From: Mobula hypostoma
Lineage: Eukaryota
NCBI RefSeq assembly: GCF_963921235.1
Contig: NC_086097.1
Coordinates: forward strand, 21,144,001-21,208,000
DNA: 64,000 bases
Reading direction: 5' to 3'
Shown piece after piece: positions 2,142-64,000 of this stretch. The translations under genes and the position numbers were made by a program. Numbering within the stretch: the stretch's first letter is position 1; every line of letters begins with the position of its first letter. Below the pieces are notes generated by a model. It worked only from the letters and a program-made list of their open reading frames with translations. It had not been told where the DNA came from and made no database searches.

Positions 2142-5100
2142 ATGGTGATTCTTTTACAATGGAATGCAAGGAGCTTACTGGCCAATAGCCAGGAATTCAA
2201 GCACTTTATTAAAGAAATGGTTGTAAAACCGGATGTAGTGTGTATTCAGGAAACTTGGTTGAAACCAACTTTAGACTTTGTGGTATATGGGTATACAATG
2301 ATAAGGAAAGATAGAAATCTAGGGAGAGGAGGGGGTTGTGCTATGTTAATCAAGCAAGGTATACCATATAGGGTACTGGAAAAAGGAGATGATCAGGAAT
2401 ACATAGTGGTGAAAGTGTGGGAGAGAGGGGAGGGAGTGGTTATAATTAACTACTACAATCCATGTAAAAGGTTGGATTTGGACAGCCTATTAAAGATACA
2501 AGGACAAAACAGACATAAAGTAGTGTGGTGTGCAGATTTCAGTGCTCATAGCACAATATGGGGGGGATCAGATTACAGATCCAAATGGAAAGGTAATTGA
2601 AGATTTGATGGAAGAAAGGGATTTGGTGTGTATGAATGATGGTAGCGGCACAAGGATAGATATAACAACAGGAACTGAGTCAGTGTTAGATATTACGTTA
2701 GTGTCTAATACCTTGGCTGGCATTAGTAACTGGGGAGTTTGGACTGCTTCAACAGTAGGCAGTGATCACTACCCAGTTTTATGTTCAGTGGGTGAAAGAG
2801 TTGAAGTAAGACCAGGTGGCGGAACCCCAAAGTGGGTGTTTGAAAAAGCTGATTGGGGTAAGTTCCAGAAGTTGAGTGAAGAAGGGTTGACAAAGATTGA
2901 TATTTCTGGAAATGTAGATGAATTAAACAGTCAGGTGACTTCAGCAATTATCATGGCAGCAGAAGGATCTATACCTAGGAGTAAAAATAGGATGAATAGA
3001 AAACTGGTACCATGGTGGACAGAGGAATGTTGTCAGGCTGTAAAAAACAGAAATAGAGCATTCAGGCTAGTTAAAAGAACCCATAACATGCAGCATTTGG
3101 TTCAATATAAGAAAGCACAGGTAGTGGTGAGAAGAACTATACGTCAAGCTAAAAGGGCAAGTTGGAGGAGTTTTTGCGACAAGGTAGGAAGAACAACACC
3201 TGTGGGAGAGATATGGGGAATGAATAAGAGGATGGGAGGAGATAGAAGGGAATGGGAATATCCAGTAATGATATCTGAGGAGGAAATAGCAGTCTCCAGT
3301 AGGGATAGGGCTGAGGTCATGGCCAAGTCATTTGTACTGATACACAGTTCAGAAAATTTGTCTGAAGAAGGGAGAAGAAGAAGGGAAAGAATAATGAGCC
3401 AACACCCAGGTGTGTTAAGCAGGAGGGAAGGAACAGATGATATAATTGATGATCCATTTACATTAGCAGAAATGGTGAGAGCAATAAAGAGATCGAGACC
3501 AACCTCCCCAGGGAAAGATCTGATATGCTCTGTGATGCTAAAAAATCTAGGAGAAGGAGTGCTCTTGAAGTTGCTGCATTTTTATAACAGAGTGTGGGAG
3601 GAGGGAAGATTACCAAGTGCATGGAAAGAAGCAGTAGTAATTCCAATAATGAAGCCTGGCAAGGATCTGTCAAAACCTACTAGCTACAGACCAGTTGCAT
3701 TAACATCAAGAATATGTAAGATAATGGAAAGGATGATAACAGAAAGGTTATCATATGAGCTTGAGAAAAGGGGAATGCTGGCAAGTTACCAGAGTGGTTT
3801 TAGAAAGGGAAGGAATTCCATGGACTCAGTGATTATGTTAGAGACTGAAATAAGGAAGGCCCAGGCAAATAGAGAGTCAGTAGTGGCAGTGTTCTTTGAC
3901 ATTGAAAAAGCCTATGATATGATGTGGAAGGAAGGATTATTAATTAAACTGCACAAGATGGGGGTTGGTGGGAGAGTTTTTAATTGGATTAAAGATTTTT
4001 TGTTTGGTAGAAAAATTCAAGTTCGGATTGGACCAGAATTATTAAAACAGTACATAGTGGAAAATGGCACACCTCAAGGTAGTGTGATTAGCCCGTTACT
4101 TTTCATCATTATGATCAATGATGTCTTCACAAAGGTACCAGTGGATATAGGTAGGTCACTGTTTGCGGATGATGGGGCCTTGTGGAAAAGAGGCAGGAAC
4201 ATGGACCATATAATCAGGAAACTACAAGAAGCAATTGATGAAGTGGTGGAGTGGGGTTATGATTGGGGATGTAGATTTTCAGTAGACAGAACTCAAACTG
4301 TATTTTTTACCAGGAAAAGGGTTGAGGTAGGGAAGAAGTTAAGGATGTATAGGGTTGAATCAGAAAGGGTTGCATCATTTAAATTTCTGGGAGTTATATT
4401 TGATTCACGATTAACATGGGCAGACTATATCAGGAAAGTTGAGGAGAAATGTAAAAAAGTAATAAATGTGATGAGATGTTTGACTGGTAGGGAATGGGGA
4501 GCAAGTTGTTCAGCTTTGAAGAGAATGTATGTGGCTTTAGTAAGATCTGTATTGGATTATGGAAATACAGTATATGGATCAGCAGCTAGGTCTCTTATAA
4601 AGAAACTGGATGTGATTCAGGCTCAGGCCTTGAGAGTGTGCAGTGGGGCTCTTAAAACGTCACCAGTGTCAGCCCTACAGGTAGAAATGGGAATAATGCC
4701 TTTGGAACTAAGAAGGATGCAACTGATGGCAAACTACTGGGCTAACTTGCAGGGGCACAATGATTCTCACCCTACTAAAGGAGTGTTGCAGGAGTGCTGG
4801 GAAAATGGGAGGTTTCAGAGGGATACCTTTAGTTGGGTAGGGAATGATATCGCGAAAGAATGTGGAGTGTTTGATCTGAGGATAAGTCCTTCAGTAGTTT
4901 ATCTGGTTGTAGCTCCATGGAAGCTTGTATGGCCTGACATAGACTGGCATTTGTTAGAGGTAAAAAGGAAAGAAAGATATAAAACAGATTTGGTAAATGC
5001 ATTTAACTGTCATGTGATGGAAAAGTATAGTGATTATACTCACATTTATACGGATGGTGCGAAGGAACCTGAAACAGGAGTGACAGGGTTTGGGGTGGTA

Positions 5101-5907
5101 ATACCAGCAAAAGAAATTGGAATCAGCAGAAGAACATCTAATAAGTTAGGAGTGTTTACAGTGGAGATGCTGGCAGAGTTGGTTGCGTTGCAATGGGTGC
5201 AGAAAGCCAGACAAGCCAAAGCATTGATATGTTCAGATTCATCCTCAGTTCTAGCAAGTTTAAGGTCTTTTCACACAAACAGTCGGCAAGATGTACTTTA
5301 TGAAGTCCTTCAGTTAGTTACAAGAATTGCAAATCAGGGAGGTCAGGTAAAATTTCTATGGGTTCCAGCACATGTAGGGGTGAAGGGGAATGAGAGGGTG
5401 GATGAGTTGGCAAAGAGGGCGTTAAAGAAAGAAAATGTGGAAATGCACATTAGTATCTATAAAGCAGAGGTTAAGTGTGTAATCTGGGAAAAAGTCAACC
5501 GAATGTGGCAAGAAAGATGGGACAGGGAGGGGAAAGGGAGGCATCTATATCAAATACAAAAGAGTGTTGCAGTTACTAGGGTAGGTAGTGGAAACAGAAG
5601 AGAGGAAACTGTGTGGACTAGGTTAAGGCTGGGGCATTGTGCATTAAACAAAACATTGAAAATGATAGGGAAACACCAGACAGGATTGTGTGAGGAATGT
5701 CAGGAAGAGGAGTCAGTAGAACATGTAGTTTTGTGTTGCAGGAAGTATGGGATACAGAGAGAGATGATGAGAAATAAATTAAGGGAGTTGGGGATGCAGG
5801 AATTCACATTAAAAGGGTTGCTGGGCATGGGTGAGAGAGCACAAGTCCGGGTATTTTTAGCGTTTTTAAGGGGTACAGGGGTTTTTTTTATAGAATATGA
5901 CGAATAA
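2142..5907 (+). pseudogene. Nimb LINE ORF2 (APE endonuclease, RT, RNase H, CCHC) with one frameshift near 2560-2566
   Basis: EN motifs LQWNARS, IQETW, SDH. RT motifs FFDIEKAYD, GTPQGS, LFADD. RNase H motifs IYTDGA, SDS, WVPAHVGVKGNERVDELAK. C-terminal CEEC..EESVEHVVLCC. Confidence 0.9.
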
Positions 5908-5955
5908 ACAGGAATAGGATACTAGAATGATCAAAGATGGGAGGGTGAAGTGTAG

Positions 5956-5958
<3 letters not shown>

Positions 5959-5995
<37 letters not shown>
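5959..5995. repeat. (TG)n microsatellite in the Nimb 3' UTR
   Basis: Directly visible. Confidence 0.95.
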
Positions 5996-5997
<2 letters not shown>

Positions 5998-7639
5998 TTA
6001 GAATGTATGTCTAGTGCACATTCTGGAGCAGAGGGTGGCGGTAATGCACCATTAAGCTGGATGCCAACCGCCGTAAAACAAGATACAGAGAGAGAGAGAG
6101 AGACAGATAGCATGGAAGCTGGCCTATTAGTCAACCACCAGAGTCCCATTTACATTAATCCCCTATCAGAATCAGGTTTATTATCACAAACATATGTTGT
6201 GAAATGCTTTATTTTGTGGAAGCAGTACAATGCAAGACATAAAAATTGCTGTAAATTACAATAAGAATATACCAAAATAAATAAATATTGCAAAACAGAA
6301 GCAAAATAGTGTTCATGAATCTGATGAAGGAGAGGAAGAAGCTGTCCTCAGAGAGTTGTGTGTGCGTCTTTAGGCTCTCCATTGTTCCTAGTACAGCAAT
6401 GAGATCCAGCACTCGAGTGACCTCTCTCCCCCTTGGTGCTGTCAGTGGATGGTGCCATAGTCAGGTTTATTCGACGCAGACTGTCGATTTGGATTCTCAG
6501 GTTTTCGTCACTCTTTTTTGTCCTACTCTTGGGCGATTTCTGAATCCGGATGGCCTGCAGACAATGAACACTGGGTCGACTTCTACTGGAATATGCCTTT
6601 TGATTTTGTGTTTTTATATTCTCTGTTTTTCCTCTTTTTTTTGTTGCTGTTTGCATTTTCTCTGCATGGGGAGGGGCGTCTGAAGTTTGACGTTTTTCTT
6701 TGGATGGGTTGGTTCCATGGTTCTTCTTGTTCCATGCCTGTCTGTGGGGGAAAACAAATTTCAGGATTGTGCACTGCTAACATACCTTGATAGATAAATG
6801 TACTTTGTGAAGAGGGCATGCCCGGGATGGTTTCCCATATTCCCATTGATTCCCTCCCTACAAAAGAAGCAATTTATTGTGGGTGATTAACCCATCAACG
6901 TGCACGTCCTTGGAAGATTGGTAGAAATTTTGGGGGGAATGAGCACATTCTCAGGAAGGACGTGTATGCTCCACCTAGTCTCCGAGTTGGGGATTGAACC
7001 AGATTCTACGGTGCAATGAGACAAGGGCTTTACTTGCTGGAACTCCATCCCACCTCACTGCTCGCTGGCCATCTCCTCCCTAATTTCCAGCAGCAACATT
7101 ATGTCGACAGTGTTCAGAGGAGCAAAACTGGAGATACCTCAGCTGCAAATCCAATAAACATTAACTACAGTGAAGACGCAGCCCATAAACTGCAAATTGT
7201 AAAGAGCAATAAAATGTGAATTATGCCAATCCCTACATTCTATATTTAAAACCAGAAATACTATAGTAAAACTATATTTCATTTGGCTCCATAACTCAGA
7301 AGGAGCTGATGGAGCATAACAGGGGAGATGATGGCAGCAATAAAATTCATCAAAGCTTTGTCATCTTAAATGAGAGCCATCAACAGTTTAAACAGATTCA
7401 CGTCTGTGCCTCGTTATCAAAGATATATCCTAACGGGACTATCCTCCAGTCTTCATGTTCGATAGAAAAGGAAATTAAAATGGGTTTTGAAATGTCAAGT
7501 TTTGTTTTAAATTCATAAAAAGAAATGTATTTTCCTTCGGTTTGAACTAATGGGAGGGGAAAAGGAACACCATCCGTTTCCCACCTTCATGAATAAAGCC
7601 TTTGCACAAAAAAGGATACTCTGAATTTTGCCATGGCAA

Positions 7640-10600
7640 GTGAACAAAATTATGCCACTCGGCCCATCAAGTCCCCGCTTTCCTTCTATCATGGCTGATT
7701 TATTATCCCTCTCAACCACATTCTCCTGCCTTCTTCCCATAACCTAACTAAGAACCTATCAAAATTCAAAGTGCATTTATTATCAAAGTATGTATAACTT
7801 TCTATAGGGGCACAATTGAGAGCATCCTGACTGGCTGCATCACTGCCTGGTATGGGAACTGTACTTCCCTCAATCGCAAGACTCTGCAGAGAGTGGTGCA
7901 GACAGCCCAGCACATCTGTAGATGTGAACTTCCCACTTTTCAGGACATTTACAAAGACAGGTGTGTAAAAAGGGCCTGAAGGATCACTGGGGACCTGAGT
8001 CACCCCAACTACAAACTGTTCCAGCTGCTACCATCCAGGAAATGGTACTGCAGCATAAAAGCCAGGACCGACAGTCTCTGGGACAGCTTCTTCCACCAGG
8101 CCATCAGACTGATTAATTCGTGCTGACACAACTGTACTTCTATGTTATATTGACTGTCCTGTTGTACATACTAGTTATTATAAATTACTATAAATTGCAC
8201 ATTGCACATTTAGACGGAGACGTAACGTAAAGATTTCTCCTCATGTACGTGAAGGATGTGAGTAATAAAGTCAATTCAATCCAATCCTTTTGGGCAGCCA
8301 CAAAACAAGAAATCCAAAAGAACCCATTAAAAAAATCCAATTAACATCCAATGGGGGCGGGGGGGGGGGGGAAGAGAGGGAGATCGTGCGAACAATAAAA
8401 ACAAGCAAACAGCATTCAAAACAAAAGTGAGCCCATAGGCTCAAAGCCCAGAGCAGCCGGGGCAGGCCCAAAGCCTCAGTTTCAGTGCAGCGGAGAGCAG
8501 ACCAAACATTGCGGAGCAACAAGCCAAACCAGTCCTAACACCCTGCCTTTTCAATCCACCCAGCCTGGTGTTTAAATCATCCAAACACCTTGCTCTGAGA
8601 TCTGGGCCCTATTGCATCGATATGCTCTGGGCCTGGACCCCGCCTGACCTGACCTTTCTAAATCGGCAAGGCACTCAGGTTGATCAAATCTTGCTCTGGG
8701 TTTAGGTGGACGGGCTCTGAAACTCCTCTGTTCTGACTTTTCTCCATTCTGCTCACTCCAGCTCCAGCCGTCTCACCCACTACAGGAAATATCCTCTCCA
8801 CATCCATTCTATCTAGTTCTTTTAATATACGATAAATTTCAATCAGATCCCCCCTCATTCTTCTCAACTCCTATAGGCCCAGAGCCATTAGATGCTCCTC
8901 ATACGTTAACCCTTTCATTCCCGGAATTATTCTCCTGAACCTCGTTTGGAACCCCCCCAATACCACCACATCTTTTGTTAGATAAGGGGACCAAAACTGC
9001 TCACAATACAAGTGTGGTCTGACCAATGTCTTATAAAGCCTCAGCATCACATCCTTGCTCATTTATTTTAGTCCTTTGGAAATAAATGTTAACATTGCAT
9101 TTGCCTTCCTCACCACCAATGCAACCTGCAAGTTAACCTTTAGGGAATCCTACAAAAGCTCCCGAGTCCCTGCACGCCTTGTACTTTTAAAATTTTCTCC
9201 CTGCATAGAAAATAGTCCATGCCTTTACTCCTCCTACCAAAGTGCATGACCATACACTTTCCTACACTATATTCAATCTGCCACTTCTTTGTACATTCTC
9301 CCAATCTGTCCAAGTCCTTCTGCAGACTCCCTGCTTCCTCAACACTACCATCTATCTTCGTATCATCTGAAACTTAGCCACAAAGCTATTATTTCTGTCA
9401 TCCAAATCGTTGACATATAATGTGAAAAGAATCAGTCCCAATACTGACTCCAGCAGAACACCATTTGTCACTGGCAGCCAAGCTGACTAAGTTTCCTTCA
9501 TTCCGACTCTTTGTCTCCTACCAATCTTCTATCCATGTTGAAATCTTTACTGTAATACCATGGGCTCTTACCTTGTTAAGCAGCCTCATGTGTGGCACCT
9601 TGTCAAAGGTCTTCTGAAAATCCAAGTAAACAACATCGACTGACTCTCCTTTGTCAATCCCACCTGTTATTTCCTCAAAGAATTCCAACAGATTTGTCAG
9701 GTAAGATTTCCTCTTAAGGAAACCATCCTGACATTGGCCTATTTTATCATGTGCCTCAAATCCTTATCTGTGATCATGGACTCCGACACCTTCCCAACCA
9801 TTGACATCAGGCTAACTGGCCTGTAATGTCCTTTCTTCTGCTTCCCTCCCTTCTTAAAGAGTGGAATGATATTTGCAATTTAACAGTCCTCCGGAATGCC
9901 TCCACAATCTTTTCAGCTATCTCTTTCAGAACCCTGAGGTGTAGACCATTTGGTTGAGGTGACTTATCTACTTTCAGATCTTTCAGCTTCCCAAGCACCT
10001 TCTCCTTAGTAAGAGCACCTACACTCTCAAATTTCTGGCATACCGCTAGTGTCTTCCACAGCTAAGACTGGCGCAAAACACTTACTAAGTTCGTCCACCA
10101 TTTCTTTGCCCCCCCCCATCACCTCTTCAATGTCCACTCTTACCTCCCTTTCACACTTTATAGATCTCAAAAAACTTTTGACATTCTCTTTGATATTACT
10201 GTCTAGATTACCTTTGTATTTCATCTTTTCTCTCCTTTTGGCTTCTTTACTTGCCTTCTGTTGGTTTTTAAAAGCTTCCCAATCCTCTAACTTCCCACTA
10301 ATTTTTGCTGTATTATATGCCCCCTCTTTTATGCTGTCGTTGACTTCCCTTGTCAGTCATGGTTGCCTCATCCTCCTTTAGAATACTTCTTCTTCTTTGG
10401 AATGTAACTATTCTGTGTCTTCCTAAATGCTCCCAAAAATGCCATTGCTATTCTGTCGTCATCCCTGTTAGTGTCCCCTTCCAATCAACTTTTGCCAGGT
10501 CCTCTCTCATGCCTCTGAGATTCCCTTTACTTGACTGTAATAATGATACATCTGACTTTGTCTTCTCCCTGTCAAAGTGCAGGGTGAATTCGATCATATT

Positions 10601-15859: not shown

Positions 15860-16890
15860 ACAAACAAGAGAAAATCTACAGATGCTGGAGATCAAAGTAA
15901 TACACATTAAATGCTGGAGGAACTCAGCAGGTCAGGCAGCATCTATGGAAAAGAGTACAGTTGACATTTTGGGCCGAGACATTTCATCAGAACTGGGGAA
16001 AAAGAGATGAGAAGTTAGAGTAAGCAGGCGAGGGAGGGGTGGAAGAAATACAAGGTAGTAGGTGGTAGGTGAAACTGGGAGAAGGGGAGTGGTGAAGTAA
16101 AGAGCTGGGAAGTTGATTGGTGAAAGAGGTACAGGGCTGAAGAAGGAGAAATCTGATAGGAGATGACAGAAGGCCATGGAAGAAAGAAAAGGGGAAGGAG
16201 CAGCAGTGGGAGGTGATGGGCAAGTGGGGAGATGAGAGAGGAAAATGGGGATGGGGAATGGTGAAGGGGGCGGGGCAATTATAGAAAGTTAAGGGAATTG
16301 ATGTACATGTCATCGGGTTGGAGGCTACCCAGACAGAATATAAGGTGTTGTTCCTCCAACCTGAGTATAGTCTCAGTGCAGCAGTAGAGGAGGTCATGGA
16401 TTGACATGTCAGATTGGGAAAGGGAAGGTGAATTGAAATGGGTGGCCACCAGGAGATCGCACATTTCCTGGCAGACGTAGCGTAGGTGCTCGGTGAAGCA
16501 GTCTCCAAATCTACGTAGGGTTTCACTGTTATGCAGGAGGCCACATCGGGAGCACTGGATACAATAGATGACTCCAACAGACTCACAGGTGAAGTGTCGT
16601 GTCACCTGGAAAGACTGTTTGGGTCTCTGGATTGTAGTGAGGGAGGAGGTATGGGGGTATGGGGGCAGGTGGAGACACTTATTCTGCTTGCAAGGATAAG
16701 TACCAGGAAGGAGATCAGTGGGGAGGGATAAATGGAGAAGAGAGTCACATAGGGAGCAATCTCTGCTGAAAGTGGGGTTGGGGAGGGGAGAGAAAAATGG
16801 GCTTGGTAGTTGGAACCTGTGGAAGTTACGGAGAATTATGTGCTGAATGTGGAGGTTGCTGGGATGGTAGGTGAGAAGAAGAGGTCTTGT
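15860..16890 (-). mobile_element. Penelope-like element, 3' part (GIY-YIG endonuclease and 3' UTR)
   Basis: FTCESVGVIYCIQCSRCGLLHNSET..EH..VATHFN..RLEEQHLIFCLGSLQPDDM. A degenerate hammerhead core lies at ~15959-15994. Confidence 0.88.
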
Positions 16891-29027: not shown

Positions 29028-29440
29028 TACACAGGCAAAAAGCTGCAGGCACTCAGTAGGCCAGGCAGCGTCTACGGAAAAGATTACAGTCGAATTACAG
29101 TCAACGTTTCGATTAAGACCCTTCAGCAGAACTGGAGAAAAAAAGATGAGGAGTAGAGTTAAAAAGTGAGGGGGGGGGGAGGGAAAGGAGAAACACAAGG
29201 CAAAAGGTGAAACCAGGAGGGGGAAGGGTGAAATAAAGAGCTGGGAAGTTGACTTGTGGAAGAGATATTGGGCTGGAGAAGGGAGAATCTAATAGGCGAG
29301 GACGGAAGGCCATGGAAGAAAGAAAAAAGGTCGGGTGGGGGGGAGAGCACCAGAGGGAGGCAATGAGCAGGCAAGGAGATAAGGTGAGAGAGGGAAAAGG
29401 GAATAGGGAATGGTGAAGGAAAGGGGGGGGGGGGAGTGGA
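29028..29440 (-). mobile_element. Penelope-like element 3' UTR fragment
   Basis: Homologous to 15880-16270; carries a mutated hammerhead core at ~29099-29143. Confidence 0.8.
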
Positions 29441-39244: not shown

Positions 39245-40452
39245 GAGGTTGGTCGAGAAGGTTCAGTTGCTTGGCATTCAGGATGAGGTAGTAAAATAGA
39301 TTCAATATTGGCTTTGCAGGAGAAGCTAGAGAGCGGTAGTAGATGGCTACTTCTCGGAATGGATGCCTGTGATTAGTGGTGTGCTGCAGGGATTGGTGAT
39401 GGGTCTGTTGTTGTTTGTCGTCTATATCAACAAACTGGATGATAATGCAGTAAACTGGATCAGCAATTTTGCGGATGACTCAAAGATTGAGGGTCTACAC
39501 TGTGCTAAGAAATGGCAGATGAAATTTAATGCAGACAAGTGTGAAGTGTTAAATTTTGGGAGGACAAACTAGAGTAGGATTTACATGGCAAACAGTAGGC
39601 ACTGAGTATAGTAGAACAGAGAGATCTGAGAATACAAATTCATAATTCCTTGGAAGTGACATCACAGGTAGATAGGGTCGTAAAGAGAGCTTTCAGCATA
39701 TTCGCCTTCATAAATCAAAATATTTAGCAAAGGAGTTGGGATGTTAGGTTGAAATTGTATAGGATGTTGGTGATGCTTAATTTGGAGCATTGTGTGCAGC
39801 TCTGGTCACCTACATACAGGGATAATATCAATAAGGTTGAAAGAGTGCAGAGAAAATTTACAAAGATGTTGCTAGGTCTTGAGGCTTCGCAGAAAGAGAA
39901 GATGAGTCCTGATGAAGGGTCTCGGCCCGAAACGTCCACCGTACCTCTTCCTAAAGATGCTGCCTGGCCTGCTGCGTTCACCAGCAACTTTGATGTGTGT
40001 TGCTAGGTCTTGAGGACCAGATTTATAGGGAAAGCTTGAATAGGTGAGGACTTTATTCCCTGGAGCATAGGAAAATGAGGGGAGATCTGACAGAGGCCTA
40101 CAAAATTATGAGGGGGATATTGCGTTAATGTAAGCAGGCTTTTTCCAGAGGTTGGGTGAGACTAAAACTAGAGATCATGGGATAAGAGTGAAAAGTGAAA
40201 TGTTTAAGGGAAACATGAGGGGAAACTTCTTCACTCAGAAAGTGGTGCGAGTTTAGAACGAGCTTCCTGTAGAAGCGTGGGTTTCATTTCAACATTTAAG
40301 AGAAATTTGAATAGGTACATGGATGGGATGGGTATGGAGGGCCATGGTCGGTTGTAGATTGATGGGCAGAATAATAGTTTGATTAGGCAGAACAGTTTGC
40401 ATGGATTAGATGGGCCTTAGAGCCTGTTTCTGTACTGTAGTGTTCTATGACT
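39245..40452 (+). mobile_element. CR1 3' fragment carrying a ribozyme-motif mini-insertion
   Basis: SGVLQGLVMG, NFADDSK and HCVQLWSP. 3' tail cctgtttctgtactgtagtgttctatga. Confidence 0.85.
39905..39940 (+). ncRNA. Minimal type-I hammerhead ribozyme motif, PLE-derived (stem I 3' strand mutated)
   Basis: agtc-CTGATGA-a-gggtctcggccc-GAAA-cg-TC-cacc. Confidence 0.6.
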
Positions 40453-42684: not shown

Positions 42685-42872
42685 ACAAAGAAAGAAAATC
42701 TGCAGATGTAAGAGGTTGAAAGCAACACACACAAAATGCTGGAGAAACTCAGCAGGCCAGGCAGCATCTATGGAAAAGAGTAAACAGTCGACTTTTGGGT
42801 CAAAGCCCTTCATCAGGACAGAAAAGAGTAAACAGTCAATGTTTTGGGCTGAGACCATTCATCAGGACCAGT
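42685..42872 (-). mobile_element. PLE 3' tail with two tandem degenerate hammerhead motifs (42786-42819 and 42834-42868)
   Basis: A 48-nt duplication. Each copy reads gtc-CTGATGA-a...ccc-AAAA...gact on the minus strand. Confidence 0.75.
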
Positions 42873-58942: not shown

Positions 58943-59184
58943 CTGAAGAGGAAAAGAAAAGTTACACTATGATCTCAAATTACTAACACAATTGGGCAGA
59001 TGGCAAATAATTGAAGCAATTGCAGAATTATTTAATATTGTATTCTCTTAAATAGAGAAAATGGTTGTCAAGCTGAGGTGGTTAAGGTAATTAAATGTTT
59101 TGAATGTGGACATAGAGGGAAAATATTTCCATTGGGAGCTAAGAACAAAACAGCATAACCTTATGTTGTTTTAACATAATCTGT

Positions 59185-59490: not shown

Positions 59491-60071
59491 TTTAAAACAG
59501 TGCTACGCTATTCATAAAGGAAATCAGGAAACACTTTGAAGAGAGCAAATTTGGAACTAGATGAGACAATTGAAAATGTCAGTACTGATCTTGATTGTAT
59601 TTTGCTTGAATACCGGAGGAGTTAGAGCCAAGTGGGCACGTGGAGTAGAGATGAAGATAATCTATGAAATAATTGACTGGTGGAAAGGACTGAAGGACCA
59701 AATACTGTACTCCTGTCCTCTCTTTTTAAATCACCTAACTTCATACTGTATAATAGGGGTCGCCAACCCATCGGTCGCGATCGACCGGTCGATCTTTGAG
59801 ACTTTCCCAGTAGATCCCAAAAAAAATCAAAAATAAATACACAAATACTGTTGTAAAGTGAGCATTATAAAAATAAGTAATACTAATTAGGATAATGTCA
59901 ATATAGCAATACTTTTGCTACAAAGCTGTTTGTAAAGAGAGATTGTTTCCGGGTTGCGGGGTTTCAGTTCCGTTCTTCCTGTCCAGCGCGCATGTGTGTA
60001 GCACCCCCACCATGAACTGCATTTTCAGCGTAGCTTGTGCTGCATCAAAGCGACCAATTAAATTAGATACA

Positions 60072-60363
60072 CAGTGGTCCCCAACCACCGGGCCGCGAAG
60101 AATGCAGCAGTACAGTGGTAGTCAGAACGCACCAAGCACATCTTTAAGAAAAAAGCTGAAATAAACAAGCTAATTAATTAGGTGCCGCCCGACACGATTG
60201 CGTCGTCTCTGATCTGGGCCTACATTTTCGTGTCGGGTGGCACCTAATTAATTAGTTTGTTTATTTCGGCTTTTTTTTCTTAAAGATGTGCTGGGTACGT
60301 TCCGGCCACCGCTGTACTGCTGCAGCACTGCATTCTTCGCGGCCTGGAGGTTGGGGACCACCG
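60072..60363. mobile_element. Palindromic hAT MITE nested in the hAT element
   Basis: TIRs cagtggtccccaacc / ggttggggaccaccg and inverted arms of about 125 bp. Confidence 0.85.
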
Positions 60364-61511
60364 GATAAGAGTACAAACTGTCACAAACATCAATATATGG
60401 CACTCGCTCATGATATCCTGATAGCATGGCGGAGGCTCCACGAAAGAAGGCGAAAAAGTACAAATTCCATCCAGAATGGGAAGAGGAATTTCTATTTACT
60501 TTGGTGAAAGACAAGTGTGTACGTATGTTGTGCCACCAAACACAAGCACTGACTAAAGGAGGGAATCTGGAGAGGCACCACAACACCAACCACCAGGAAT
60601 TTAAAGACACCTACCCCCCAGAGAGCACAATTCGTGCCTGGAAAGTTGAGGAGCTGAAATCAGGGTTGAAGGCCCAGCAATCATTTTTCACAAAACATGC
60701 TGCTGAAAATAAGGCTGCTATTGAAGCATCATTTCGTTTAAGTCACCTTTTGGCCAAACACAAGAAGCCTTTTACAGATGGCGATTTATTCAAGGAAGCA
60801 ATGGCCATTACCACAGAGACTGTTTTTAATGACTTTAAAAACAAAAACGACATCACAACCGCAATACATAATATACCACTTGGCCCTGCAACAGTGACGA
60901 GGAGGGTAGAGTCACTGTTAGAGGACGTGGATATTTTTCACTACAATTCGATGAATCCCTGGATGTAATGCAAACAGCTCAGCTTGTTGTATTTGTCAGA
61001 ATGGCTTTCCAGGATTTTACAACAAAGGAGGACTTCCTCACTCTTTTGCAATTAAAGGAGAGAACGAGAGGTGAGGATATTTACAATGAGTTTAAAAAAT
61101 ATGTCTGTGAAAATGACAACCCCATTCATAAACTGGTGGCAATTACTACTGATGGGGCCCCAGCAATGCGCAGTGTGCACGTTGGTTTTATAGCAGTAAA
61201 AGTCAGTTTCTACTTCCGGTCAACTTATCTATGTGAAATTGCATTTTCACAGATGAAAAATTATTAAATATAAGTACAGGAGCTGTCTTACTGACAGACA
61301 CCTCACAGACTGTCTTGGACTGGCTGTCTGTAGTTATGAGCCAAATTTCAGGGAACTAGCAATAAGTATTCGGCCCCAGTCATCACACTGAGTGCAACAG
61401 TCAATTTTTATTCATTTATTTTTCGTGTTGAAATAAAATTAAATAATGAAACTTAGAATTAAAGGTGTGAAGTATTGTAATATTCTTAAAGAAAGATATG
61501 CTAGTTACAGT

Positions 61512-61549
61512 TAGTCCTGACGAAGGGTCTCAGCCCGAAACGTCGACTG
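61512..61549 (+). ncRNA. Minimal type-I hammerhead ribozyme motif, PLE-derived (intact core)
   Basis: tagtc-CTGACGA-a-gggtctcagccc-GAAA-cg-TC-gactg. Stem I is agtc/gact, stem II is ggg/ccc, stem III is the palindromic ACGT. Predicted cleavage is after 61544. Confidence 0.72.
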
Positions 61550-62454
61550 TACCTCTTCCTAGAGATGCTGCCTGGTCTGCTGCGTTCACCAGCAACTTTG
61601 ATGTGTGTTACAGTGTTTTCTTGTATGAATTAATTTTAAAGTTTGACAAAAGTATTTTGTGTAACTCAAATACAATTAGCCCAAATAAAAGGCCTCAAAT
61701 TGGCAGTACAATCTGAGCTGTTTTTTCTCTAAATGATTCAGTAGGTAGATCTTGCCTTTCACTAAGGTCAAGGTAGGATATGTTGGGCTTGAAAAGGTTG
61801 GTGACCACTACTGTATAACATTAATGTTTGTACAAGTATCCATACTGTTCTAAGTCTATAAGGTTAAATGACTGGGTAATTTGAAATGATGCAACATCTT
61901 GCTCTGAATTAAAAACAGAAAATTTGTGCTTAAAATATTTGCTGCCATATCCCATTGGTTATGCATAAGTAGAAGCCAATGTACTTACATTTAAAGTAAT
62001 TGGCAAAAGATCAGAGGGGAGATGTGCCCTCAGGGTAGTAGGACTCTGAACCCCACTACCCATAATGGCTGCAGAAAACTTCAATGTGTTTAAAAAATAC
62101 TTCCATGTTTTGGGAGATCTGTGCACCTGGTGATGAACGATGAGATTAGCTTTGGTAACTCTTTTTTGACTGGTATGTACAAGATGAGCCAAGTGGCCTC
62201 CCCTGCCATAGCAGCAAAGTATCAAGCCCTTCCACACTCTTTGCCCAGGCTGATCACCAAGTACGTATCTATACTAATTCCATTTACCAGAACTAGGTTA
62301 AGAGCCTATGAGCATTTGGCTCATATCTTTCAGATATTTCGTTAATTTTCTGGGAGTATTTGCATGAATGCTTCCTCAGGTAGTGTCTTCTGGATTCCAA
62401 TCACCCTTTGATCCCCTTAAACCTCTTATTGCTTGCTTGTCAATTTAAACCTAT

Positions 62455-64000
62455 GTTCCTGGATTTCAGTGCTTTAAAAGGGATAGAGAGGGAGGAAAAA
62501 GGGGAGGAGGGGTGGCATTACTGGTCAGGGATACTACTACAGCTACAGAAAGGGTGGGTAATGTAGCAGGATCCTCTTTTGAGTCAATATGGGAGGAAGT
62601 CAGGAACAGGAAGGGAGCAGTTACTCTACTGGGGGTATTCTATAGGCCCCCTGGTAGCAGCAGAGATACAGAGGAGCAGATTGGGAGGCAGATTTTGGAA
62701 AGGTGCAAAAATAACAGGGTTGTTATCATGGTTGACTTTAACTTCCCTAATATTGATTGGCACCTGATTAGTTCCAAGTGTTTAGATGGGGCAGAATTCG
62801 TTAAGTGTGTCCAGGATGGATTCCTGTCACAGTATGTGGACAGGCCGACCAGGGGGAATGCCATACTAGATCTAGTACTAGGTAATGAACCGGGTCAGGT
62901 CACAGATCTCTCAGTGGGTGAGCATTTGGGGGACAGTGACCACCGCTCCCTGGCCTTTATAATTATCATGGAAAAGGATAGAATCAAAGAAGACAGGAAA
63001 ATTTTTAATTGGGGAAAGGCAAATTATGAGGCTATAAGGCTAGAACTTGCGGGTGTGAATTGGGATGATGTTTTTGCAGGGAAGTGTACTATGGACATGT
63101 AGTCGATGTTTAGCGATCTCTTGCGGGATGTTAGGGATAAATTTGTCCCAGTGAGGAAGATAAAGAATGGTAGGGTGAAGGAACCATGGGTGACAAGTGA
63201 GGTGGAAAATCTAGTCAGGAGGAAGAAGGCAGCATACATGAGGTTTAGGAAGCAAGGATCAGATGGGTCTATTGAGGAATATAGGGAAGCAAGAAAGGAG
63301 CTTAAGAAGGGGCTGAGAAGAGCAAGAAGGGGGCATGAGAAGGCCTTGGCGAGTAGGGTAAAGGGAAACCCCAAGGCATTCTTCAATTATGTTAAGAAAA
63401 AAAGGATGACAGGAGTGAAGGTAGGACTGATTAGAGATAAAGGTGGGAAGATGTGCCTGGAGGCTGTGGAAGTGAGCGAGGTCCTCAATGAATACTTCTC
63501 TTCGGTATTCATCAATGAGAGGGAACTTGATGATGGTGAGGACAATATGAGTGAGGCTGATGTTCTGGAGCATGCTGATATTAAGGGAGAGGAGGTGTTG
63601 GAGTTGTTAAAATACATTAGGACAGATAAGTCCCTGGGGCCTGACTGAATATTCCCCCAGCTGCTCCACGAGGCGAGGGAAGAGATTGTTGAGCCTCTGG
63701 CTAGGATCTTTATGTCCTTGTTGTCCACGGGAATGGTACTGGAGGATTGGAGGGAGGCGAATGTTGTTCAAAAAAGGTAGTAGGGATAGTCCGGGTAATT
63801 ATAGACCAGTGAGCCTTACGTCTGTGGTGGGTAAGCTGTTGGAAAAGATTCTTAGAGATAGGATCTATAGGCATTTAGAGAATCATGGTCTGATCAGGGA
63901 CAGTCAGCATGGCTTTGTGAAGGGCAGATCGTGTCTAACAAGCCTGATAGAGTTCTTTGAGGAGGTGACCAGGTATATAGATGAGGGTAGTGCAGTGGAT
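62455..64000 (+). mobile_element. CR1 ORF2 (EN and start of RT), running off the window
   Basis: GVFYRPP, VDFNFPNIDW, LGDSDH, KEPWVT, GNYRPVSLTSVVGK and DSQHGF, with few stops. Confidence 0.92.

Follow-up and report, generated by a model that had tools for sequence, protein, structure and literature searches.

Minimal hammerhead ribozymes (min-HHRs) of Penelope-like elements (PLEs) sit in the pLTRs of these elements, and most copies are dispersed singly and have been ascribed to truncated PLEs; they are known from fish Neptune, Poseidon and Xena (PMC4209133, in part). In PAc, a Poseidon element of Anolis carolinensis, the hammerhead cuts only with protein and is dispensable for insertion (PMC11167929, in part). 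A preprint by Li, Clavereau and Pollet already contains the idea that retrozymes come from PLE ends, and reports that one of nine tested dimers cleaved (10.64898/2026.07.22.740005, in part). A pile-up of end points is not described in the consulted parts of PMC4209133, 5' truncation sites are not mapped in those of PMC11167929, and a search of mostly open-access literature found no pile-up of PLE 5' end points.

The locus described here is itself ordinary, being a truncated PLE end with a known min-HHR motif. It lies in the window, the 64,000-nt stretch of Mobula hypostoma DNA that we analyzed, which comes from a 3.48-Gb genome. Direct reading, a motif scan and the published definition (PMC4209133, in part) place a minimal type I hammerhead, with predicted activity, at 61512..61549 on the plus strand. 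Stem I pairs TAGTC (61512-61516) with GACTG (61545-61549). The core is made of CTGACGA (61517-61523), an extra A at 61524 and GAAA-CG-TC (61537-61544), stem II is GGGT-CTCA-GCCC (61525-61536), and stem III is the loop-less palindrome ACGT (61540-61543), with the predicted cut at 61544/61545. The CUGANGA and GAAA core, the UH cut site, stems I and II and the loop-less palindromic stem III of min-HHRs are thus all present in the sequence. An earlier note had claimed a complete minimal type I hammerhead, and the intact core letters and stems bear this out, with cleavage itself a prediction. An Rfam scan of the window at E ≤ 1 returned no hammerhead and three chance-level hits, and the fold of 61508-61552 has a z of -1.61 (13 of 200 shuffles were equally good), so the hammerhead is recognized by its core letters and stems and not by folding energy. 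Direct reading and the motif scan found a single hammerhead at the locus and no tandem. The predicted monomer pairs both core strands (-13.5 vs -9.5 kcal/mol for stems I and II), and the active-type dimer is predicted at -17.9 against -30.2 kcal/mol for the best dimer; these energies exclude tertiary contacts and protein. On this modeling, a single hammerhead on its own would pair its core wrongly, and a dimer of the active type is not the preferred one.

The hammerhead opens a 95-base insert (61512-61606) that direct reading places between two copies of an 8-bp direct repeat, GTTACAGT, at 61504-61511 and 61607-61614. The insert interrupts a decayed hAT-like DNA transposon (59754..61810, plus strand, by direct reading) that has terminal inverted repeats (TIRs) of about 15 bp and many genomic copies, and is itself flanked by an 8-bp duplication, CTGTATAA, at 59746-59753 and 61811-61818. 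The TIR and duplication anatomy suggests that this host is hAT. It contains a Spin-doc zinc finger match below its cut-off and a nested palindromic MITE (60073-60361) whose termini resemble the inverted repeats of the host. Downstream lies a fragment with LINE-like endonuclease and RT (62440-64000), which is presumably CR1-type. A candidate host exon near 58,945 on the minus strand had no open frame.

We searched for empty sites in other hAT copies. From 1,471 candidates, 40 were scored and 30 loci taken, 29 of them besides the window copy. The insert was absent from 28 of the 29: 17 had exactly one GTTACAGT and 11 had a variant of it. Since the uninterrupted site in these copies has a GTTACAGT-type sequence only once, the duplication is real, and the view that the insert is flanked by a direct repeat inside a hAT element is upheld. 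In the remaining copy (L053), a member of the insert's PLE family sits at this spot in inverted orientation, as an independent insertion. L053 and the window copy, two cases only, suggest a target preference at this hAT site.

The insert boundaries are ambiguous by 3-4 nt because short stretches belong to both repeat and element, as the sequence, the empty sites and the long copies of the family indicate for both target-site duplication copies. The left copy (61504..61511, plus strand) ends in CAGT, which is element sequence too (CAGTTAGTC occurs in 23 of 23 long copies) and constitutes a 5' microhomology. The right copy (61607..61614, plus strand) begins with GTT, which also matches the 3' continuation of the element. 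The PLE copy may start anywhere at 61508-61512 and end at 61606-61609, within an element-matching span of 61508-61609. The proposal that it starts at the 5' strand of stem I therefore stands to within about 4 nt, and the CAGT microhomology leaves the exact base ambiguous. We also note that the inverted insertion in L053 (about 1,300-2,000) has the same right-hand boundary, after ACAGT-like bases, as the window copy.

The 95-base insert is most probably a heavily 5'-truncated, dead-on-arrival copy of an autonomous Neptune-type PLE, that is, the 3' end of such an element (61512..61606, plus strand) lacking an optional tail of about 40 nt. A 32-letter tail pattern had 55,687 exact matches in the genome and its control had none, and the window copy shows two differences over 97 nt to 3 of 22 long copies. 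Upstream, the long copies have a pyrimidine-rich stretch followed by broken ORF pieces with YIDD, C-X4-C-X2-C and GIY-YIG; the fetched copies comprise pieces of long copies and no full-length element. We take YIDD and the neighboring motifs in these pieces to be RT-type. The RT pieces (C-terminal part) had no Pfam match and no PDB match, and an Atlas search gave a lead, namely PF26215 clusters (0.96) and one in which RVT_1 is present in 19% of the members. The GIY-YIG endonuclease is C-terminal in the parent ORF (PF01541, 22.7 bits vs a cut-off of 22.6, in L003), and the C-X4-C-X2-C linker is present in L003 and L022. A CX2-5CxxC motif between RT and GIY-YIG marks Neptune, Nematis and Naiad, and a C-terminal EN excludes Naiad (PMC8557442, in part). 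The Cys motif and the C-terminal endonuclease point, at the sequence level, to Neptune or Nematis, and we label the family Neptune-type.

The GT-rich sequence at 61550..61609 (plus strand) runs from the hammerhead to an internal 3' end, which would be an internal RT start under the model of PMC11167929 (in part). It matches long copies that lead into the GIY-YIG ORF, as expected from the claim that a PLE 3' tail follows the hammerhead. Copies of the family stop at either of two 3' ends, separated by about 40 nt, with the optional tail present in 29 and absent from 35 of 64 sampled copies; they often have an inverted 5' partner arm, and their 5' ends span 32 to >1,500 nt. Target duplications of at least 8 nt occur in 19 of 37 testable rows (27 of the 64 rows were left out as inverted or open-ended), with a median of 13, and 5 of the 19 lie far from the 5' end. 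The insert was probably mobilized by PLE proteins, as the earlier note proposed. The window holds a second short copy of the family (39905..40001, plus strand, from the motif scan and comparison), which also starts at AGTCC; it has an 18-bp duplication (39867-40015 region) that overlaps the element end by 7 nt, and a 20-nt filler at its 5' joint. An older decayed subfamily of the same PLE end is found on the minus strand at 15920-15980 and about 29050-29140, and at 42750-42868, where it carries a duplicated hammerhead segment.

We assessed where copies of the family end in a direct sample of 64 strand-copies in 50 loci, taken around exact tail matches that follow one another in the initial 3 Mb of contig 1. 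Loci from a separate search were left out of the end-point counts, since its query had selected for them. Positions are counted back from -1, the last T of GATGTGTGT (window 61608), which puts the cut between -65 and -64 and the start of AGTCC at -96 (61513). Nine copies have their 5' end at -31 to -64, none at -65 to -78, 22 at -79 to -105, 7 at -106 to -135 and 6 at -136 to -400, and 20 are longer (6 long copies run beyond the fetched DNA); the bins were picked after the data were seen, and one copy (L096, true end about 132) was placed by hand. Per base, ends occur at a rate of about 0.018 across the hammerhead's 5' half vs 0.0045 downstream, 0.007-0.008 just upstream of the hammerhead and 0.001 further up. 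Of the 22 hotspot ends, 8 (at -96 to -105) keep the whole hammerhead and little more, and 14 cut into the ribozyme. Simple units like the window copy account for 4 of the 64, plus 2 in the window. With 22 of 64 copies ending in the hammerhead 5' half and a peak near AGTCC, the 5' ends do not follow ordinary uniform truncation, in agreement with the earlier note.

Short copies stop at a common place in the element with or without the tail (medians 89.5 and 92, respectively; p 0.87), and the data reject the 39-nt shift that a constant cDNA length would predict (p 0.0016). Since these ends coincide although the cDNAs differ by about 39 nt, element position and not cDNA length sets the end. Tailed copies are, however, less often in the hotspot zone (6 of 29 vs 16 of 35 untailed), which counts against a reading based on position only. 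Thirteen of the 22 hotspot ends adjoin reverse-complement element sequence, compared with 18 of 200 random window pieces used as control, and several of these inversion joints run through stem I or palindromic letters (L079, L107 and L061). The other hotspot joints have short fillers of ≤25 nt that mostly echo target or element.

Genome-wide, we counted 32-letter anchors alone and anchors preceded by three purines, a flank that the intact element cannot give. Purine-marked ends made up 687 of 50,142 matches (1.37%) at the stem I start (-96), 139 of 88,609 (0.157%) at the cleavage site (-64), 123 of 49,914 (0.246%) at -124, 28 nt upstream of the stem I start, and 47 of 83,426 (0.056%) at -48, 16 nt downstream of the cut. 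The odds ratios for the excess at the stem I start are 8.8 vs the cleavage site, 5.6 vs -124 and 24.6 vs -48. A sample of ordinary copy lengths combined with a counting bias, due to purine-rich inverted arms and diverging older subfamilies, might imitate such an excess where no real hotspot exists. GGA or AGG make up 42 of 100 marked flanks among the -96 matches listed, which fits the purine-rich inverted partner arm, and counts on the same footing cover only four positions. The excess nevertheless grows when AAA flanks are taken alone (20 of 100 listed of the 687 at -96, 9 of 100 listed of the 139 at -64, 11 of 100 listed of the 123 at -124 and 7 of 47 at -48), reaching about 19-fold vs -64, 10-fold vs -124 and 33-fold vs -48. 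In each of four sequencing runs, the contigs place the largest of the listed loose 5' ends at -96, and their tail ends fall at the expected place. An older subfamily whose sequence departs from the others at -96 contributes to these loose 5' ends and appears in their consensus, so the loose ends are consistent with a hotspot and are not independent proof of one. The step in the direct sample from no ends in 14 nt to 22 in 27 nt, and the shared stopping place of tailed and untailed copies, also speak against a mere bias, which we regard as the least credible of the alternatives considered here. GAA stands before about 40 of 100 listed cut-site matches, as would be expected from a 5-nt deletion recurring just ahead of the cut rather than from truncation.

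A pile-up of 5' ends would equally be produced by a discrete short family. Retrozyme identity was considered for the window copy and fails, since the copy has one hammerhead and no tandem, with the cut site inside the unit, where marked ends are rare. A broader possibility is a retrozyme- or SINE-like mini-family, in which transcripts of units made of ribozyme plus tail would undergo processing by the hammerhead before PLE protein inserts them again. The surplus of ends where stem I begins, the simple units of this size and the top loose end at -96 in four of four runs, mixed as it is, would all be expected of such a family, and the 2026 preprint derives animal retrozymes from PLE ends (10.64898/2026.07.22.740005, in part). 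Cleavage at the single hammerhead would, however, cut the unit in two and leave ends at GUC, where marked ends are 8.8 times less frequent than at the stem I start, and most hotspot ends damage the ribozyme. PAc moreover requires RNA well beyond the RT start, and the window copy has no such sequence (PMC11167929, in part). Neither a shared 5' joint nor private variants were seen among the sampled short copies, a small sample. The subfamily letters of the 22 hotspot copies fall in four sets, all of which also occur among 27 long copies (chi2 8.2, permutation p 0.62), in a test that is low in power (22 vs 27 copies, 3 diagnostic letters). The 100 listed hammerhead matches include no same-strand pairs within 500 bp, as against eight head-to-head pairs within 1 kb (counted by eye). 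Tandems are rare, consisting of one 145-bp triple among 100 listed matches, head-to-tail joints to -96 in DNA contigs, and L102; the joints and the three-unit array, known from its coordinates, would suit a mini-family. We consider such a family highly improbable. The three same-strand matches of that array (G000:C2:12242897, 12243042 and 12243187, minus strand, 145-bp period) are a candidate retrozyme-like array.

Because the short copies span all the long-copy subfamilies, and because 14 of the 22 lose part of the ribozyme and 13 have inversion joints, we read them from these sequence features as a recurrent truncation hotspot and not a lineage. The earlier note had suggested a non-autonomous retrozyme-like family, which the single hammerhead, the rarity of ends at the cut site and the shared subfamily letters do not support. 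Plotting the end points, the check it proposed, thus gave a mixed outcome: the pile-up is there, in the sample of 64 and in the four-position counts, but a distinct family is not supported and the joints are heterogeneous.

The pile-up might also mark an RNA boundary: transcription could begin where stem I begins, or a 3' splice acceptor could lie there, so that some templates would start at this point or be spliced to another exon. Long copies (e.g., L099, -116 to -95) have a TACTAAC-like sequence, a pyrimidine run and CAG-TTAG just before TCCTGA, and in D. virilis Penelope the 5' end of helix I is where the intron stops (PMC4209133, in part), but the whole sense strand is pyrimidine-rich anyway. 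In one run (X11, guessed to be RNA), 29 loose ends lie a single base further in than the peak; a loose end at the cut site in one contig of this run carries no weight as evidence. A pattern of different construction at -94 had 895 matches, with a denominator of at least 50,142, and the TCC and AGTCC counts (895 vs 687) are compatible with exon joints ending in AG. If flanks are random, however, ends exactly at the acceptor are fewer than those at -96 (roughly 4% vs roughly 11%, both rough estimates). The ends are spread over about 25 nt and not fixed at one base, no upstream exon is common to the joints, and their fillers are short. In the contigs of the four runs we saw no site where many molecules start or stop, and contigs cannot show RNA ends or circles. 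An RNA boundary is in our judgment an improbable cause, slightly ahead of a mini-family. The 5' ends of L095 and L064 lie right at -110, within the splice-acceptor-like stretch.

Under the preferred reading of a truncated insertion, the PLE protein would bind a longer uncleaved RNA and nick the hAT DNA, as inferred from Anolis PAc (PMC11167929, in part). Reverse transcription would start inside the template at the GT-rich inner site, one of two, where 3 nt of target match at the window copy. A single cDNA of about 100 nt would be copied, and the 4-nt CAGT match would then serve to join it to the opposite end of the target. Both target strands could be extended, and the order of these steps is drawn by analogy with PAc. 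The hotspot may arise because the self-complementary arms of the hammerhead, or a protein bound to it, stop reverse transcription, or because they offer microhomology for joining after reverse transcription has passed through the 5' arms. The mirror hairpin in the cDNA is predicted to be weak (-4.0 to -4.9 kcal/mol), which leaves fold-back as the cause of the hotspot without energy support. The hammerhead would be a passenger, and the lone copy, having no cis partner, would not be a template for further rounds.

The preferential break-off in the 5' half of the ribozyme suggests that its structure shapes insertion. The low number of copies that begin at the cleavage site provides in vivo support for the in vitro finding of an uncleaved RNA template (PMC11167929, in part). 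Both family-level results bear on the role of the PLE hammerhead. We tentatively raise the further idea, which is more likely to be wrong than right, that the hammerhead fold or bound PLE protein, and not cleavage, sets a preferred 5' boundary of PLE cDNAs in vivo, yielding ribozyme-plus-tail modules, the few head-to-tail ones among them being retrozymes at birth. If this is true, cis dimers can form where units have landed head to tail, as in the 145-bp triple on C2 and in DNA contigs with tail-to-stem-I joints. It would then show concretely how a retrozyme can arise from a PLE, and genomic copies would record how the PLE hammerhead acts during reverse transcription. With >50,000 young copies in the genome, PLE truncation could be mapped at single-base resolution, and so could the origin of tandem hammerhead units.

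The hammerhead resembles the metazoan PLE min-HHRs in its type I core, the extra base between positions 9 and 10.1, the short helix I, the lack of a helix III and the palindromic 15.2-16.2 (PMC4209133, in part). It differs in helix II, which has 4 bp in the window copy vs 7-8 bp in the Schistosoma families, and the copy number of the family is more than 10 times the 4,000-9,000 of coelacanth and Xenopus (PMC4209133, in part). As in PAc, there are two 3' ends downstream of the hammerhead, which are 30-40 nt apart in PAc. PAc extends both target strands, which the inverted arms of the Mobula family fit, and its template RNA is uncleaved, without RNA ends at the cut site, in line with the small number of genomic ends there (PMC11167929, in part). 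The Mobula family has a Neptune-type Cys linker, and the distance from cut to end is about 64-67 nt vs 85-92 in PAc (PMC11167929, in part). PAc primes without homology in vitro (PMC11167929, in part), whereas the window copy has a 3-nt target overlap at its 3' end; the mean in 10 untailed copies is 1.2. Animal non-LTR retrozymes share with the window copy a type I hammerhead, a noncoding nature, a PLE-derived end and a target duplication (PMC7761336; 10.64898/2026.07.22.740005, both in part). They are, however, tandem repeats with at least two hammerheads, represented by cut-to-cut monomers and circles (PMC7761336; 10.64898/2026.07.22.740005, both in part), whereas the window copy is a single truncated end.
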